Source: a virus (taxonomy: Duplodnaviria; Heunggongvirae; Uroviricota; Caudoviricetes). Taken from it: a stretch of 64,000 nt of DNA. The DNA is taken from IMG/VR virus record IMGVR_UViG_2724679539_000005, positions 1-64,000 of that record; one strand, written 5' to 3'. The notes under the pieces are model-generated. The model did not search any database. It worked only from the letters and a program-made list of their open reading frames with translations, and had not been told where the DNA came from. Position 1 is the stretch's first letter. Each line of letters begins with the position of its first letter. Both the position numbers and the translations under genes were made by a program. This document shows, one piece after another, positions 25,169 through 34,802 of the stretch.

Positions 25169-26215
25169 TCAGTTATCCTTTAATAACCTATACAGTTTTG
25201 TAGGGGTACATCCTGAGGATATTGTTAAGTTCGTAGCACGCCTTTTCCGCCCACCATCGTATAAACGAAAACCAGTAGTAGACGAATTTTCTGCGTCAAA
25301 AACTATAGACAGTATAACGTCCCCAGACTTTTTTTGCCATTCATATGTGCCGTTAGTTGGTTTTGTCATCTGTAGACGCCAGTCAAGAACGCCATCACTT
25401 ATAGCTGAGAGATCGTTTAGTACGTCTAGTACGGATTGATATCTTTCATTTGGATCTACATGAATGCATTTGTTTACTATTGTTATCAATTTTTTATGTA
25501 TGTGGGAAGGATACTCTTTTAATGGATAGGAGCCATTAATTATCGACTCTCTGAGTTGTTCAATCGTTCTAAATGCAGATCTTTCTCTTTCAAAATTATC
25601 ATATCCAACACACATTCTATATATGGTTAATCCTGCCTGATATATGTCATATGTGAAATTATAATCATTTGTTGATAAAGAAAAATATTCCGGTGGCACA
25701 TGAAAATGATATCCAAACTCAGGCGCAGCTCTCGATTCCTCATTGACTAACTGAGACAATCCAAAGTCAGATAGCATGGCCTCATTTCTGTTTGATATCA
25801 TGATGTTATTAGGTTTTATATCAAAATGCATAAGACCTTTTGAGTGTATATGATAAAGCCCACTTAAAAATTGAATAGAATACCGTATTATCTCCCTGCT
25901 CGTAAGATTAATCTTTTTTATTAATTGGTTTAGCGAACCATTATGATAAAATGGCATGGCTATATAGATATTGCTCTCACATTGAGCAGCATACTGAACT
26001 TGCACAATATTTGGATGTGCATGTTTATAGAGAAGCCTTGCTTCATTAAAGTAGTCGTCGTGGTTAGTGTTTTCTTTTTTTTCTATTTCTTTAATCACCA
26101 AGTCATGAGCTAGGTGTCTGTCATGAGCCAGATATACTTTTGAAAAACAACCCTGTTCTTCTAGATCACGAATCCATTCGAATGCTACATCAGCTCTTTT
26201 GTATGGAGTCAGCAT
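25169..26215 (-). CDS. Eukaryotic-like (Hanks-type) Ser/Thr/Tyr protein kinase
   Basis: Gly-loop GCFSKVY, VIK lysine, catalytic loop HFDIKPNN, SDFGLS, PPE; AT-rich. Confidence 0.8.
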   Translation of the reverse strand: MLTPYKRADVAFEWIRDLEEQGCFSKVYLAHDRHLAHDLVIKEIEKKENTNHDDYFNEARLLYKHAHPNIVQVQYAAQCESNIYIAMPFYHNGSLNQLIKKINLTSREIIRYSIQFLSGLYHIHSKGLMHFDIKPNNIMISNRNEAMLSDFGLSQLVNEESRAAPEFGYHFHVPPEYFSLSTNDYNFTYDIYQAGLTIYRMCVGYDNFERERSAFRTIEQLRESIINGSYPLKEYPSHIHKKLITIVNKCIHVDPNERYQSVLDVLNDLSAISDGVLDWRLQMTKPTNGTYEWQKKSGDVILSIVFDAENSSTTGFRLYDGGRKRRATNLTISSGCTPTKLYRLLKDN

Positions 26216-26670
26216 CCCCTTACCTCCGCAGATAGTGCAGCCAAAACAGCTTCATTTGTTTCAGTTGTAAAACCAGAATTATCGATTCCATTTATATTAC
26301 GGTGTGACTTCAATATTTCTTTATACTCGATCTCTGTTAGGTTCAATGATGACTTCATACCAGATTTTCTAATGGTGTAATATCTTCTTACATCACTGCT
26401 TGAAAATGCTTCTTGAATAACAGCTTCTATATAAAGGCGGTCAATGCTAAGATTATCAGAGTTTGATTCAGTAACGCGTATAGCAGCTAATTCAACATTA
26501 TATAAATTAAGAATGTCGAGGATGTTATTTCGCACATACTTTAATTTTTCTGGTGTGTCTAAGGTCGAAGGTATTTTAATAACATCAACACATTTGAGTG
26601 CAGACTCATCAGTGCAATATACAACAAAAGATGTAACTTTGGGCGCCGCCCTAACACCTAGTATTCTCAT
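26209..26670 (-). CDS. Hypothetical protein (153 aa) coupled to the kinase gene
   Basis: Stop overlaps kinase start by 7 nt; AT-rich. Confidence 0.5.
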   Translation of the reverse strand: MRILGVRAAPKVTSFVVYCTDESALKCVDVIKIPSTLDTPEKLKYVRNNILDILNLYNVELAAIRVTESNSDNLSIDRLYIEAVIQEAFSSSDVRRYYTIRKSGMKSSLNLTEIEYKEILKSHRNINGIDNSGFTTETNEAVLAALSAEVRGC

Positions 26671-27805: not shown

Positions 27806-28351
27806 ATGATTATGCAACCACTTACATACCAACAGACTAGCGGATTTAGCCCGACTGCGGTGATAAATCGTTCTCAAATAAAACAGGTGCCAGGCCACGA
27901 AAAAATCCGTGATGCCGTTCGCGCCTGGTCGGCTGCAGATAATCAGGATGTTGTTGCCGCACTCATTGTGAATGAGTATCGGGAGCAGGGCGGCGGCACC
28001 ATCGATTTCCCTGATGATGTCAGCCGTGCACGCCAGAAGCTGTTCCGCTTCCTCGATAACAAATTCGATTCTGAAAAATACCGAAATAACGTGCGTGAAC
28101 TGACCCCGGCAATTCTGGCGGTACTACCGCTGGAATATCGCGGCCACCTGGTTGAGCAGGATAGCTTCATGGCTCGGCTGGCTGAAATGGAAAAGGAACT
28201 CTGTGAGGCAAAGCAGGCGGTCATTCTCAACGCACCACGCCACCAGAAACTGAAGGAGATGAGTGAAGGTATTGTGTCGATGTTTCGTGTGGACCCGGAT
28301 CTGGCTGGTCCATTGATGGCGATGGTCACCACCATGCTGGGGGCAATATGA
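27806..28351 (+). CDS. CII-like regulator (YdaT-type)
   Basis: 181 aa, position and size match the cro-proximal regulator of Rac-type prophages. Confidence 0.5.
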   Translation: MIMQPLTYQQTSGFSPTAVINRSQIKQVPGHEKIRDAVRAWSAADNQDVVAALIVNEYREQGGGTIDFPDDVSRARQKLFRFLDNKFDSEKYRNNVRELTPAILAVLPLEYRGHLVEQDSFMARLAEMEKELCEAKQAVILNAPRHQKLKEMSEGIVSMFRVDPDLAGPLMAMVTTMLGAI

Positions 28352-29367: not shown

Positions 29368-30065
29368 AAAACATCGCCGCACAGATGGTTAACTTTGACC
29401 GTGAGCAGATGCGCCGGATCGCCAACAACATGCCGGAACAGTACGACGAAAAGCCGCAGGTACAGCAGGTAGCGCAGATCATCAACGGTGTGTTCAGCCA
29501 GTTACTGGCAACTTTCCCGGCGAGCCTGGCTAATCGTGACCAGAACGAACTGAACGAAATCCGCCGCCAGTGGGTTCTGGCTTTCCGGGAAAACGGGATC
29601 ACCACGATGGAACAGGTTAACGCAGGAATGCGCGTAGCCCGTCGGCAGAATCGACCATTCCTGCCATCACCCGGGCAGTTTGTTGCCTGGTGCCGGGAAG
29701 AAGCATCCGTTACCGCCGGGCTGCCAAACGCCAGCGAGCTGGTTGATATGGTTTACGAGTATTGCCGGAAACGTGGCCTGTATCCAGATGCAGAGTCTTA
29801 TCCGTGGAAATCAAACGCGCACTACTGGCTGGTTACCAACCTGTATCAGAACATGCGGGCCAATGCGCTGACTGATGCGGAATTACGGCGCAAGGCTGCC
29901 GATGAACTGGCCTGTATGACAGCGCGAATTAACCGTGGTGAGGCGATACCTGAACCAGTAAAACAACTTCCTGTCATGGGCGGGAGACCGCTTAATCGTG
30001 TTCAGGCTCTGGCGAAGATCGCAGAAATCAAAGCGAAGTTTGGGCTGAAAGGAGCAAGTGTATGA
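29364..30065 (+). CDS. P: Replication protein P (helicase loader)
   Basis: 233 aa, near-identical to lambda P. Confidence 0.95.
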   Translation: MKNIAAQMVNFDREQMRRIANNMPEQYDEKPQVQQVAQIINGVFSQLLATFPASLANRDQNELNEIRRQWVLAFRENGITTMEQVNAGMRVARRQNRPFLPSPGQFVAWCREEASVTAGLPNASELVDMVYEYCRKRGLYPDAESYPWKSNAHYWLVTNLYQNMRANALTDAELRRKAADELACMTARINRGEAIPEPVKQLPVMGGRPLNRVQALAKIAEIKAKFGLKGASV

Positions 30066-30349
30066 CGGGCAAAGAGGCAATTATTCATTACCTGGGGACT
30101 CATAAGAACTTCTGTGCGCAGGACGTTGCCGCGGTAACAGGCGCAACCGTAACCAGCATAAATCAGGCTGCGGCTAAAATGGCGCGGTCAGGAATCCTGG
30201 TCGTTGATGGTAAGGTCTGGCGAACGGTGTATTACCGGTTCGCTACCAGAGAAGAACGGGAAGGAAAGGTGAGCACGAATCTGATTTTTAAGGAGTGTCG
30301 TCAAAGTGCCGCGATGAAGCGGGTGTTGGCTTTATATGGAAGAGAGTAG
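30062..30349 (+). CDS. ren: Ren protein
   Basis: Near-identical to lambda Ren. Confidence 0.9.
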   Translation: MTGKEAIIHYLGTHKNFCAQDVAAVTGATVTSINQAAAKMARSGILVVDGKVWRTVYYRFATREEREGKVSTNLIFKECRQSAAMKRVLALYGRE

Positions 30350-30413
30350 GTATGAGCAATTATTGTTACTAATTTTAGTTTTACGACATTCGTGATAACT
30401 AAATAATTGATGT

Positions 30414-30668
30414 GTGGAACTGAATTATAAAGGGGATGATGTTTTGGGAAATAAAGAAAATATCGATTGTAAGCACACAAGAAGCTCATGCTATAAAAAC
30501 AAGCAGATGAAAGATGTTATTTATATTACATTGCCTAAACTCACTGAAGAAGAAGTAGAAATTTTTAAGGGACCAATGCATAAAGCATTGCTTGCAGGGA
30601 TAAATGTTACAAAAAAGGCAGTTTCTGATGCCCTGCTAAACAAAGGGATAAAAGTTGAATTTAAATAG
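30414..30668 (+). CDS. Hypothetical small protein, AT-rich
   Basis: 84-aa ORF in the AT-rich insert. Confidence 0.3.
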   Translation: MELNYKGDDVLGNKENIDCKHTRSSCYKNKQMKDVIYITLPKLTEEEVEIFKGPMHKALLAGINVTKKAVSDALLNKGIKVEFK

Positions 30669-30719
30669 AGTAATTCAGTGGCAACAATAGCACTCATTTG
30701 TGAGTGCTATTGAAATTTA

Positions 30720-32138
30720 TTAGAAAATAATGTTTGCTATATCCGAGATAGCATTTAAAGAACCTCTGTGGTCACTTCCTGTTTTAGGTAAAATATAGGA
30801 ATATCGAGGGTCTTCATTATATGTTAACTTCCAGTGTTTTCCATCGCTTGACGCACTGAAACCTAAGTCCTTTAAATTTCTTTGTGTTGCGCTATCCATG
30901 CTTCTGTAACCTGTTAAAGTCCTTTTAAGTAATTGGCGGCGACTCTCGGTTTCTTTATTGTATTCATTATTGGCAATTAGGGATGATAAGATATGGTAGC
31001 TTCTACCAAATTCATTTTTATTTTTTATGGCAGTTTTTAGCGCGTCAATAATTATATTTTTGATTTCTCCATCAAAAAAATCAGTCTCTTCACCAGCATT
31101 AAGCACAATGCTTCCTTGGGCTGAAGCTTGTGATTGAAGAGTGCGTACTCTGTGCTCTAAAGAGGAGATCTTATGCTTAAGATCTTCTATTTGGTCATCT
31201 TTCGCAACATTATCGGCTTCGTAAAGCGCCATCAGTTCGCGTGTGTATTCTCCTCTTTCTTTGAGTGAGTTAATAGAGTCTTTCGTTTTTCTGGTTTGTA
31301 TCTCACTCCATCCACTATCTGAGACAGGAGCCATTGTAGTCGTAGCTCTTACAACATCATCAAATAACTCATCTTCAAATTCTTTTGCGGTTTTCTCACC
31401 ACGGCGATAAAAACTGATATTTTGACCCCGTGGCCAATAGATACCAACAGCACCAGCATAGGCATTTTTAGCATTTGTCTCATTTTTTAGCTTAATAGAA
31501 AATAGTCTATTGCTAGGCTCAATTAATACATGTGCTAATCCGCATACCTTTCTTGCAAGGCGTTCTGGGATGATATTGTGAGCATGTTCATTAAAAAAAT
31601 ACTTGGAGCTAACGTATATTATTGGTAGTCTGTTGTCAGTTTCACCATTTATAACTTTAGCTGCTATATTTAAATGTTCATCAGTATCATCTAAGGAATG
31701 AGGTTCGACTGACACCTTGAAAATATCATCAAGACCACCAGAAAATTTATCAATCAATCTCATAACAACTAATGGTTTCTTAGGTTGCGGGGCTAGATAA
31801 GCTGCATCTTGGCTTACAACGCTAGATTCCACCTGAATCCACATGGTATCAGTTTTGAGATTTTTATTAATTGAAATATCTGTTACCCATTTGTGTGGCT
31901 CAGATATTTTCGAATACCTAAAACAGCCTAAACTAGTATCTTTGTTTTTATAAGTTATTATATCAATTCTTTCATTTTTAGACTCTATGAAGTACTCCTC
32001 GCTTTTATAATCACATACTAATTGTGCTGGAATAAAAGTTGTATGTGGTGAGTCGTTTACCCAAGAAAAACATTCATTAAAGATCTCAGCTAGAGATGTG
32101 GAGTTTGAAACATAAAAACCAGTTGAGAAATATTTCAT
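30720..32138 (-). CDS. Hypothetical protein (472 aa), AT-rich moron
   Basis: Long ORF with coiled-coil-like C-terminal half; no recognisable motif. Confidence 0.65.
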   Translation of the reverse strand: MKYFSTGFYVSNSTSLAEIFNECFSWVNDSPHTTFIPAQLVCDYKSEEYFIESKNERIDIITYKNKDTSLGCFRYSKISEPHKWVTDISINKNLKTDTMWIQVESSVVSQDAAYLAPQPKKPLVVMRLIDKFSGGLDDIFKVSVEPHSLDDTDEHLNIAAKVINGETDNRLPIIYVSSKYFFNEHAHNIIPERLARKVCGLAHVLIEPSNRLFSIKLKNETNAKNAYAGAVGIYWPRGQNISFYRRGEKTAKEFEDELFDDVVRATTTMAPVSDSGWSEIQTRKTKDSINSLKERGEYTRELMALYEADNVAKDDQIEDLKHKISSLEHRVRTLQSQASAQGSIVLNAGEETDFFDGEIKNIIIDALKTAIKNKNEFGRSYHILSSLIANNEYNKETESRRQLLKRTLTGYRSMDSATQRNLKDLGFSASSDGKHWKLTYNEDPRYSYILPKTGSDHRGSLNAISDIANIIF

Positions 32139-32242
32139 GAAATTTCCTTATTAAAAATGAGATTAATCTCATTGGCTATGATAATTGTTACCCTCCTTTG
32201 GATCTAGTGTTCATTTGACATAAGAACCTATTGATTCATCAT

Positions 32243-32386
32243 AATCAACTCGCCATAATCATGTCATCGGAGCCTAAAAAACTCCGGTGACTTCTGCGCT
32301 AAACGGGGACGTTTATGCGCACACACAATCCAAACTCTCATCTCCATTCACAGATGCAGAAATGCACCTACGATTTTTTACATTCG
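32243..32386 (+). repeat. Direct repeat copy 1 (about 140 bp, about 90 percent identical to copy at 34177-34317)
   Basis: Alignable by eye: AATCAAC..GCCATAATCATG..AACTCCGGTGACTTCTGCGCTAAACGGGGACGTTTATGCGCACA..CGATTTTTT. Confidence 0.75.
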
Positions 32387-32669
32387 GTGTTTTACTTCGA
32401 CAGCCAGAATTGGGAGTCTCTATTCGTCTGGCGGCTAAAGGTGATATGGAAATCGTTATGTTTTGGCCTGAGGTAGTTGTAACTGTTGTAGCAGCTATGG
32501 CTGTGATCATCATGGTGTCCATTTACTGGGGTTGACGACATGATTTATCCGGCGCTATATTCTGTGCGTTGCCGCAAAATCGGCACACGGGATTGGCGTC
32601 CCGGGATACTACTCAACGCATACCGCGTTAAGCGGTTTTTTTGTGCGCTAAGCACGGCTATGCCCAAAT

Positions 32670-32755
32670 TATGGTGGGCTGTGTGAGGGCTTCTTCGGAA
32701 GCGCCGGGTTTGAGTAGCCGGTTACGCCAACCTTACACAGTTCACCACCAGTCGA
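32670..32755 (+). ncRNA. C4/CI-like antisense RNA, copy B
   Basis: Same conserved scaffold as copy A; loop TTGAGTAG is complementary to CTACTCAA at codons 2-4 of the ant gene. Confidence 0.5.
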
Positions 32756-32798
32756 TTGGCGTCGTTGGTGGTGATGGTTAACCTGATGAGGTGATACT

Positions 32799-33407
32799 AT
32801 GACTACTCAATTAGCATTCCACAAAACGACGTTTACCCCGATTTGCCACAATAACAGAATTTGGCTTACTGCCACTGAAGTTGGTTTAGCACTGGAATAT
32901 GCGGACGATAAAGCAGTTCAGCGCATTTACTCTCGGCACTCAGATGAATTCACAGATATGATGACAAGGGTGGTCAAAGTGACCACCCCTCGTGGAATGC
33001 AGGAGTCTCGAGTATTTAGCCTTCGCGGAGCCCATTTGATCGCCATGTTTGCTCGTACTCCTGTGGCCAAAGAATTCCGCCGCTGGGTTCTGGATATTCT
33101 CGATCGAGAAGTTCAACAATCCCCAATCACAAAACAATTCACTGATAACGAACTTTGCACACTCGCCTGGTTATGGCGAGCAAGTGATACGATGTTAACC
33201 GCCTGCCAGAACGTTACGCCCCTTCTTCAGGTCGCAGAGCATCGCGAAGCAGGTAGATTCACTTCAATCGAACAAGAATATCCTCGGATACTCAACAGGG
33301 CGCGAGAAATCCTTGCCAGAGAAACGGCGCATGTAAAATTCCAACCGTGGCAGGATGATAAGTGGAGTCGTGTGTTACCATATTTCCGTCAGAATCTGTT
33401 GCAATAA
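32799..33407 (+). CDS. ant: Phage antirepressor (Bro-N/Ant family)
   Basis: N-terminal NRIWLTATEVGLALEY region typical of Bro-N; directly downstream of C4-like RNA as in P1 immI. Confidence 0.65.
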   Translation: MTTQLAFHKTTFTPICHNNRIWLTATEVGLALEYADDKAVQRIYSRHSDEFTDMMTRVVKVTTPRGMQESRVFSLRGAHLIAMFARTPVAKEFRRWVLDILDREVQQSPITKQFTDNELCTLAWLWRASDTMLTACQNVTPLLQVAEHREAGRFTSIEQEYPRILNRAREILARETAHVKFQPWQDDKWSRVLPYFRQNLLQ

Positions 33408-34152: not shown

Positions 34153-34176
34153 TTTTCAGCACATTTGATTTCCAAT

Positions 34177-34317
34177 AATCAACCAGCCATAATCATGCCA
34201 TTGGAGCTTGAACAACTCCGGTGACTTCTGCGCTAAACGGGGACGTTTATGCGCACATACAATCCAAACTCTCTTCTCCCTTCACAGATGCAGAGATGCA
34301 CCTGCGATTTTTTGCAT
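34177..34317 (+). repeat. Direct repeat copy 2, immediately upstream of ninB
   Basis: See copy 1. Confidence 0.75.
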
Positions 34318-34346
34318 CCAGCGTTTGACCTCTGCGGAGGTGAAGC

Positions 34347-34802
34347 GTGAACCTCCCACAAGACGGCATCAAATTGCATCGTGGTAACTTCACTGCTATC
34401 GGTCAGCAGATCCAGCCTTATCTGGAGGAAGGCAAATGCTTTCGCATGGTGCTTAAACCGTGGCGTGAGAAACGCAGTCTTTCCCAGAATGCACTCAGCC
34501 ACATGTGGTACAGCGAAATCAGTGAATACCTCATCAGCAGGGGTAAAACGTTCGCCACTCCAGCTTGGGTAAAAGATGCTCTCAAACACACATATCTCGG
34601 TTATGAAACCAAAGACCTGGTTGATGTCGTAACCGGTGAGATCACCACTATCCAGTCGTTACGCCATACCTCCGATCTTGATACCGGAGAGATGTATATC
34701 TTCCTGTGTAAGGTTGAAGCCTGGGCGGTGAATATTGGCTGCCACCTGACTATTCCGCAGAGCTGCGAGTTCCAGCTGCTCCGCGACAAGCAGGAGGCGT
34801 AA
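34347..34802 (+). CDS. ninB: NinB-like recombination protein
   Basis: [13 protein letters not shown] motif resembles NinB; first nin-region gene. Confidence 0.6.

Follow-up and report, generated by a model that had tools for sequence, protein, structure and literature searches.

What is a gene of 472 codons doing beside ren in a lambdoid prophage, antisense to the early-right operon: is it cargo, a function of the phage itself, or debris? The question is raised by a stretch of 64,000 nucleotides, hereafter the window, that makes up positions 1 to 64,000 of the IMG/VR record IMGVR_UViG_2724679539_000005, a virus of the Caudoviricetes. A preliminary description of the window had pointed out about 1.9 kb of low-GC DNA after ren, with a minus-strand open reading frame (ORF) of 472 amino acids (aa) and a small divergent ORF of 84 aa, and had taken the larger one for a foreign cargo gene and a candidate defence or fitness factor. 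Both ORFs are present (30720..32138, minus strand, and 30414..30668, plus strand). The larger is an intact gene, with its stop codon at 30720-30722, and encodes a scaffold like that of the defence candidate HEC-07 (Hma-embedded candidate 07), followed by a HicA-like C-terminal domain. It is read here, with somewhat better than even confidence, as a single-gene, self-inhibited abortive-infection RNase that is horizontally mobile and expressed by the lysogen.

The deviating composition was readily confirmed. GC content is 0.30-0.41 over window positions 30350-32300, against flanks of about 0.5 (0.51-0.58 to the left in P/ren and 0.46-0.51 to the right). The 472-aa gene has a GC content of 0.357 and a GC3 (third codon position) of 0.275; that of the whole window is 0.477. 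A first search returned 75 full-length homologues, nearly all of 466-482 aa, from Enterobacterales, Pseudomonas, Stutzerimonas, Caulobacter and metagenomes, all annotated as 'hypothetical' and without a Pfam domain. When 1.84 billion cluster representatives were searched with a profile, 3,514 matched at E<=1e-3, of which 1,044 reached E<=1e-30; among the 150 listed from this search, almost all were 460-480 aa long and aligned end to end. The family comprises more than 1,000 clusters at 50% identity. No Pfam, NCBIfam or dedicated PADLOC model exists for it. With the full protein, Pfam, NCBIfam and PHROGs yielded coiled-coil noise only, apart from one PHROG of unknown function for the C-terminus, and a sequence search of the PDB found nothing.

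Conservation was assessed with an alignment of 37 sequences, from 81% down to 23% identity, all of about 470 aa and full length, which contains 20 invariant and 34 nearly invariant positions. Between two E. coli alleles, those of the window and of VCSW7, 14 synonymous and 4 nonsynonymous differences were counted (dN/dS, the ratio of nonsynonymous to synonymous substitution rates, 0.07). Against the 77%-identical homologue dS was saturated and dN was 0.16. By these substitution patterns the gene is under purifying selection. That it might be a decaying remnant or a mis-called ORF without function is suggested by its low GC content and its missing database annotation; the full-length conservation of all 37 aligned homologues across proteobacterial orders, the low dN/dS and confidently predicted folds (see below) refute this for the 472-aa gene, and the chance of it is negligible. 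For the 84-aa ORF alone a remnant remains plausible. The gene is accordingly not a pseudogene, an outcome that would have undone the earlier proposal.

A structural model was computed with AlphaFold2 from the family alignment (mean pLDDT 82.4), and aa 350-472 were modelled separately (pLDDT 91). All segments are encoded on the minus strand. Residues 1-120 (31779..32138) form a START-like alpha+beta domain with a strand, a helix and an antiparallel sheet; this domain is among the most variable parts and is a candidate recognition surface. Residues 121-270 (31329..31778) form an alpha/beta domain of thioredoxin fold without a CxxC motif, which holds the motifs with the highest conservation (LPIVYVS, GxAHVxVEP and NxYGGAVGIYWP). 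Residues 271-345 (31104..31328) contain long helices (277-294 and 300-335), are coiled-coil-like with weak Pfam coiled-coil matches (Tropomyosin, Taxilin), and are on the model likely to be a dimerisation element. Residues 346-410 (30909..31103) consist of a conserved acidic linker (GxE..FxxE) and a three-helix bundle (358-408); the linker, approximately 336-357, was modelled at low confidence. E351, E358 and R379 are invariant in this most variable segment, which shows 31-63% identity in pairs whose whole proteins are 49-77% identical, and its variable helical bundle is a further candidate recognition surface. Residues 411-472 (30723..30908) form a HicA-like alpha-beta-beta-beta-alpha domain (unit modelled at 416-472), a putative RNase effector; the codon of His435 lies at 30834-30836. 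Across the family, the thioredoxin-fold and C-terminal domains are the most conserved, and the N-terminal domain and helical aa 346-410 the most variable. The C-terminal half had been described as coiled-coil-like; the coiled coil covers only aa ~277-335 and is followed by the helical bundle and the alpha/beta domain.

For comparison with known defence proteins, the PADLOC library was searched. The sole match was to HEC-07 (E 1e-9, 35.8 bits; aa 83-334 against profile positions 107-366 of 553). One of the four PADLOC HEC-07 models (PDLC04158-04161) was matched, and a full-length, high-scoring match was not obtained; a genuine HEC-07 protein used as control (P0228) reached 740 bits over positions 6-553 and matched all four models. 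HEC-07 is a single-gene candidate (Payne et al., 10.1101/2024.01.29.577857) and one of seven candidates that lower phage plaquing according to that preprint, where three domains are described for it: one AdoMetDC-like, one thioredoxin-like without CxxC and, at the C-terminus, a RelE-family RNase whose H543 is conserved. The HEC-07 query consisted of the first 399 residues of the tested protein, as given in Table S2 of the preprint. With hhalign, aa 82-321 of the family were aligned to residues 102-351 of HEC-07 (227 columns, 95.3% probability, E 2e-8), an alignment that includes the common G-x-AHV and LYE-DN motifs, the latter at the start of the aa 271-345 segment. In a profile search that included HEC-07, two discrete length classes were found, of ~470 aa and of 545-560 aa. 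No homology links the C-terminal halves of the 472-aa family and HEC-07 (hhalign probability 0.4%); the tail of HEC-07 bears a weak resemblance to YhaV, a member of the RelE superfamily. Because the C-termini are unrelated, and the match scores 35.8 against 740 bits, the family is regarded as a distant sister of HEC-07 and not as a member. The partial PADLOC match, backed by the profile comparison, is in keeping with a defence or fitness factor at candidate status.

For the C-terminal domain, four lines of evidence are individually weak and all point to HicA. In a Foldseek search of 350,542 PDB chains, ranks 1-4 were HicA structures (5yrz_B, 6g26_F, 4c26 and 6g26_E) with probabilities of 0.57-0.82 and target-normalised TM-scores of 0.48-0.58, at E-values (0.4-0.6) that are not significant. 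HicA_toxin (Pfam PF07927) was the commonest family among C-terminal segments (6 of 23 members, best E 0.0048); the best segment reached 17.4 bits, below the Pfam gathering score of 27 bits, and the window's own segment was unmatched. With hhalign, comparison with E. coli K-12 HicA (NC_000913.3) gave an E-value of 4.5e-5 at 69% probability, with DGKHWKL aligned to GSNHLKL. A PDB profile search with the C-terminal alignment did not retrieve HicA, so that the support comes from the fold searches, the weak Pfam matches and hhalign. Within the 37-sequence alignment, conservation of H435 is complete and that of G433 at least 90%; this G-x-H aligns with the GxH of E. coli HicA. In HicA the motif lies in the turn between beta1 and beta2, and in the B. 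pseudomallei protein its Gly22 and His24 are required for toxicity (PMC3969222). Given the invariant G-x-H in this small alpha/beta domain, the earlier statement that the protein has no recognisable catalytic motif needs revising. No HicB gene was found beside the 472-aa gene or its homologues in any context examined, and the Pfam scan gave no HicB family match. Residues 411-467 match phrog_2053 (E 9e-8; proteins of roughly 72 aa) and phrog_2089 (E 0.009), phage proteins of ~70-100 aa with unknown function, so that free-standing copies of the HicA-like domain exist in phages, perhaps as toxins or decoys.

The same domain could instead be a non-catalytic binder of RNA or protein, with the thioredoxin-fold domain acting as an enzyme or ligand binder in host fitness or regulation. 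Such a division of labour would agree with the thioredoxin-fold domain having the lowest dN and, in the motifs with D137, H203, E207 and the GIYWP loop, the strongest conservation, and with every HicA line being sub-threshold. It is nevertheless unlikely: over 23-81% identity the C-terminal domain keeps H435, G433 and the P-K-T-G-S-D-x-R-G loop with little or no variation, the G-x-H aligns with the one required in HicA, and the sister family HEC-07 has an RNase-type domain of another kind in this place, which points to an RNase effector as the purpose of the architecture. The RelE-like RNase in the 550-aa class and the HicA-like domain in the 470-aa class may be interchangeable effectors on one scaffold. 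A wider proposal can be put forward tentatively, as possible and less than probable. The START-like/thioredoxin-fold/coiled-coil scaffold shared with HEC-07 would be a widespread, hitherto unrecognised modular infection sensor with swappable RNases. The family would represent a new and abundant single-gene defence in which a HicA-type RNase is controlled wholly in cis, without HicB, and the invariant His/Glu/Asp cluster of the thioredoxin-fold domain would form the site that receives the signal or binds a ligand.

The distribution of the gene was determined in complete genomes, phage records and homologous loci. The 2-kb block was found at >=97.8% identity in 24 of 5,426 complete E. coli genomes, and ren is annotated beside it in all but two of the records listed. 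In tblastn of the 472-aa protein against 50,697 phage records, no match was obtained. The ren-to-ybcN slot of strain FDAARGOS_497 and of phage Turner (L023 635-2750 and L024 635-2750) contains emrE/qacE, ylcJ and the ybcK recombinase. Because other lambdoids carry different genes there, the slot is variable, as had been supposed, and the 472-aa cargo is one rare option. The emrE/qacE of phage Turner also places an SMR efflux/biocide-resistance gene in a sequenced phage genome.

Homologous loci lie in diverse contexts. In lambdoid prophages it adjoins ren (window, L001 and L002). In DUF927 (primase-type) islands, which occupy two separate chromosomal sites (P0004, 77% identical), it is a neighbour of the integrase. 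It also lies at a prophage end by the integrase in Pseudomonas (L009) and just past the tail-fibre end of P2-like prophages in Lelliottia (L025) and Pseudomonas (L029). In Dickeya (L021) its neighbours within an integrative and conjugative element (ICE) are an IS110 element and an Mrr_cat gene. Mobilisable ColE1-type plasmids of Klebsiella (5.9 kb; L013) carry it as their main cargo. A metagenomic island (L014-L018) holds it together with radical-SAM genes and Schlafen/AlbA_2 ATPases, and in Caulobacter and in P0073 it is found without an obvious mobile element. Gene GC content was below locus GC content in all nine loci measured, by 3-25 points (median 12); the smallest gap was found in the metagenomic island (0.33 vs 0.36) and the largest in Caulobacter (0.44 vs 0.69). 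No gene was common to all contexts examined, which implies that the 472-aa gene works alone. The gene is mobile and solitary. Its low GC content, its rarity in E. coli and its homologues on plasmids, an ICE, satellite-like islands and the ends of P2-like prophages all support the proposal of a foreign cargo gene.

One candidate for a conserved partner was considered and rejected: a HipA_C-like kinase and a 249-aa protein recur beside two Pseudomonas homologues and are absent elsewhere. The two genes, for a kinase of 326-327 aa and a protein of 248-249 aa, lie immediately upstream (L009 6094-7813 and L029 5119-6844), and one of the two 248-249-aa proteins has a weak HIRAN match. The pair is not found in the enterobacterial contexts and could be a co-travelling cassette or mark a common hotspot.

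From its place inside the early-right region, next to the exclusion-related gene ren, the 472-aa gene might be thought to serve the prophage's own life cycle, in lysogeny control, replication or lambdoid-specific superinfection exclusion. The distribution largely refutes this: the gene is missing from the phage records and restricted to the few E. coli genomes given above, homologues in Pseudomonas and Caulobacter reside on non-lambdoid elements and others on an ICE or on plasmids, and sister phages have unrelated cargo in the same slot. A life-cycle function is thus very improbable, and the gene is not a conserved core phage function.

The plasmids raise a different alternative. The Klebsiella carriers, from clinical K. 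pneumoniae, are NZ_CP028803.2 (5,897 bp) and four plasmids like it. Their largest gene is the 49%-identical homologue, which has genes for a RelE/ParE toxin and a TraY-domain protein as neighbours. Such a setting, like the ICE and the islands, would suit a fused toxin-antitoxin (addiction) module that stabilises its carrier, with a labile N-terminal cis antitoxin whose loss or silencing frees the HicA-like toxin; one survey (PMC10865869) also reports fused HicA-HicB modules encoded by a single gene. A single polypeptide, however, could bring about post-segregational killing of the classical kind only if its halves were broken down at unequal rates. No similarity to HicB is seen in the N-terminal part, which is START-like and thioredoxin-like, and phage defence is what the only characterised relative was scored for. 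One role does not preclude the other; as the explanation of this family, addiction appears quite improbable.

Expression signals were examined at both ends of the gene. A Shine-Dalgarno-like AAGGA (32145..32149, minus strand), read from the sequence, is located 6 nt upstream of the ATG at 32138. A promoter-like site, ATGACA-18 nt-TATGAT (32238..32267, minus strand), has 10 of 12 consensus matches, reads towards the 472-aa gene and sits at the left edge of the first copy of a 168-nt repeat. The 472-aa and 84-aa ORFs had been called divergent; they are convergent, with their stop codons facing each other across a hairpin with a 12-bp stem (30685-30712; -17.3 kcal/mol, z = -5.95, none of 200 shuffles as stable). 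By its sequence this hairpin is a bidirectional terminator-like element with a weak T-tract. These signals of its own and its orientation, antisense to the early-right operon, are consistent with the gene being expressed in the lysogen.

For the preferred reading, a self-inhibited abortive-infection RNase, we infer RNase activity, self-inhibition, a trigger, expression in the lysogen and an anti-phage function, in the following course of events. Read in the direction opposite to the early-right operon, the gene is probably expressed by the prophage through signals of its own, to the lysogen's advantage. In the uninfected cell the front half (aa 1-345) and the coiled-coil dimer would keep the RNase domain inactive, as a cis antitoxin. 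When another phage infects, a product or consequence of that infection would be detected, either by the N-terminal domain, which is variable, or by the helical bundle. Inhibition would then be lifted and the HicA-like domain would cut RNA, upon which translation would halt and the infection would abort.

Several points count against this interpretation. Conservation is strongest in the thioredoxin-fold domain and not in the putative effector, so that an enzymatic role of its own is possible for that domain. The HicA-like domain has the fold of double-stranded-RNA-binding domains, which also occurs in RNA binders that are not catalytic. The likeness to HEC-07 is remote (~19% identity over ~240 residues, about half of each protein), and the mechanism of HEC-07 is itself putative and unproven. 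The promoter and terminator calls are based on consensus matches only. Two of the approximately ten contexts examined, Caulobacter and P0073, show no clear mobile element.

The 84-aa ORF (30414..30668, plus strand) has a GTG start and is possibly only 53 aa long, from an ATG at 30507. It had been counted as part of the unit and is better treated as an orphan of uncertain coding status than as a conserved partner, judging by the searches made with it. No match was found in Pfam, PADLOC, PHROG or NCBIfam, tblastn against phages and plasmids found nothing, and among 5.8 billion proteins there are only four clusters, all >=86% identical. More distant homologues of the 472-aa gene are never accompanied by it. 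In one allele, a 12-nt insertion (ATTAGGGTAAGT) lies just upstream of the internal ATG (Met32), and one database entry begins at Met32, giving 53 aa; if real, the ORF probably starts there. A RefSeq record (NZ_CP073976.1) labels the ORF 'phospholipase D-like'. No Pfam match at E<=1 and no homologues outside the block were found, and a two-gene system or a phospholipase D remnant, as the unsupported label would imply, was rejected.

The low-GC cargo block (30350..32230, ~1.9 kb) starts after the ren stop codon and ends where the 168-nt repeat first occurs. Its immediate left-hand neighbour is ren itself (95 aa, 30062..30349), which is annotated as Ren in RefSeq records of identical DNA and is preceded by O- and P-like replication genes. 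The direct repeat (32231-32398 and 34165-34332) had been given as 140 bp; it measures 168 nt, and its copies are 87% identical. The right edge of the block was set in two ways, by the start of the repeat at 32231 and by partial matches of 162 further E. coli genomes. Because these genomes match its last 80 bases only (query 1922-2001, window 32221-32300), the right junction was placed at the block end. An Rfam scan detected no RNA family inside the block. With deviant composition, variable presence, signals of its own (by consensus only) and, as its distribution suggests, dispensability for the phage cycle, the block has the features of a moron.

Between the block and ybcN, the gene in the ninB position (34347..34802), lies a c4/isrK antisense-RNA and antirepressor module that is bracketed by the 168-nt repeats. 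On the plus strand it contains the a1b1 targets (32555-32607; Rfam 39.6 bits, under the family gathering score of 46.7), isrK (32570-32642; 58.7 bits), the C4 antisense RNA (32667-32752; 74.8 bits) and, directly downstream of the C4/isrK RNAs, a Bro-N/P22_AR_C antirepressor gene (32799-33407). A phrog_1779 protein is also encoded in it. The module (32555-33407) is a P1/P7-type c4-ant (IsrK-like) antirepressor control inserted in a lambdoid nin region, and the repeats that bracket the antisense RNAs, ant and phrog_1779 suggest that it was inserted or duplicated by recombination upstream of ybcN. The position named in the preliminary description, the ren-ninB junction, holds in so far as the block adjoins ren and in strain MB20 abuts ybcN directly, followed by ninE, ybcO, rusA and Q; in the window the module intervenes.

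Further to the left, a low-GC region (25169-26670, minus strand; GC 0.33-0.37) encodes a Ser/Thr protein kinase of 348 aa (Pfam Pkinase 1.2e-46, PADLOC mad6 8e-49, PD-T4-6 1.5e-36), whose gene is overlapped by a 153-aa ORF without a family match. It is located immediately left of the cI-like S24 repressor gene, which is the rexAB position of lambda, and this PD-T4-6-like kinase region looks like a second defence-type moron in the same prophage. The gene in the cII position (27806-28351, plus strand), downstream of a cro-like helix-turn-helix gene, is annotated by RefSeq as 'toxin YdaT domain-containing protein' in near-identical prophages.

If a defence function is confirmed, more than 1,000 clusters of 'hypothetical proteins' across Proteobacteria would receive a named function, carried by prophages, satellite-like islands, an ICE and small plasmids, including clinical Klebsiella ones. 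One sensor scaffold would then drive two unrelated RNase folds, with a sensing mechanism approachable by domain swaps, and HicA biology would be extended to a form that needs no HicB antitoxin. The ren-ninB junction would join the slots with immunity cargo in temperate coliphages, which bears on the host range of phage therapy in E. coli. If it is not a defence gene, the family is a well-conserved mobile gene with an unknown role.

How does the 472-aa protein compare with known systems? With HEC-07 it has in common the single-gene organisation, the end of the N-terminal domain, the thioredoxin fold without CxxC and the start of the coiled coil, and in both proteins the C-terminus is formed by a small RNase-like domain of toxin type in which a histidine is conserved. 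HEC-07 is longer (~550 aa vs ~470 aa), has a RelE/YhaV-like tail in place of the helical bundle and HicA-like domain, and is embedded in Hma systems, whereas the 472-aa family is prophage, plasmid or ICE cargo. HicA toxins (PF07927; 5YRZ, 6G26, 4C26 and 1WHZ) resemble the C-terminal 55-60 residues in their alpha-beta-beta-beta-alpha fold, the aligned G-x-H motif and a conserved P...D..G loop ahead of the last helix. HicA is a free protein of ~60 aa; here the domain is the tail of a 472-aa protein, with a sub-threshold Pfam match and no adjacent HicB.

Fused HicA domains were surveyed by Gerdes 2024 (PMC10865869), which lists 14 contexts of HicA domains, including single-gene forms. In that survey, classes 11-13 are HicA fused to HicB, and class 14 is 'SMC-HicA' (WP_223300692.1). 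The fused classes resemble the 472-aa protein as described there: one gene encodes a C-terminal HicA domain behind a larger region, and self-inhibited defence toxins are proposed. Class 13 differs in its length of 340-440 aa and its mostly helical composition. Class 14 is likewise described as a coiled coil with a globular domain and a C-terminal HicA domain; it is given as SMC-like, some members have a NERD domain, and the 472-aa family may overlap with it. In the 472-aa protein the coiled coil takes up only ~60 residues, and there are START-like and thioredoxin-like domains, with which none of the HicA classes is described. CapRel(SJ46), as presented in the same survey, is similar in principle: within one polypeptide, a sensor/antitoxin domain restrains a translation-targeting toxin until a phage protein binds. 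It has no sequence or fold relation to the 472-aa protein, its toxin pyrophosphorylates tRNA where RNA cleavage is putative here, and the domain order is reversed. What is new in the 472-aa family, on present sequence comparisons, is a HEC-07-type scaffold with a swapped HicA-like effector, which makes it a well-founded candidate for defence.

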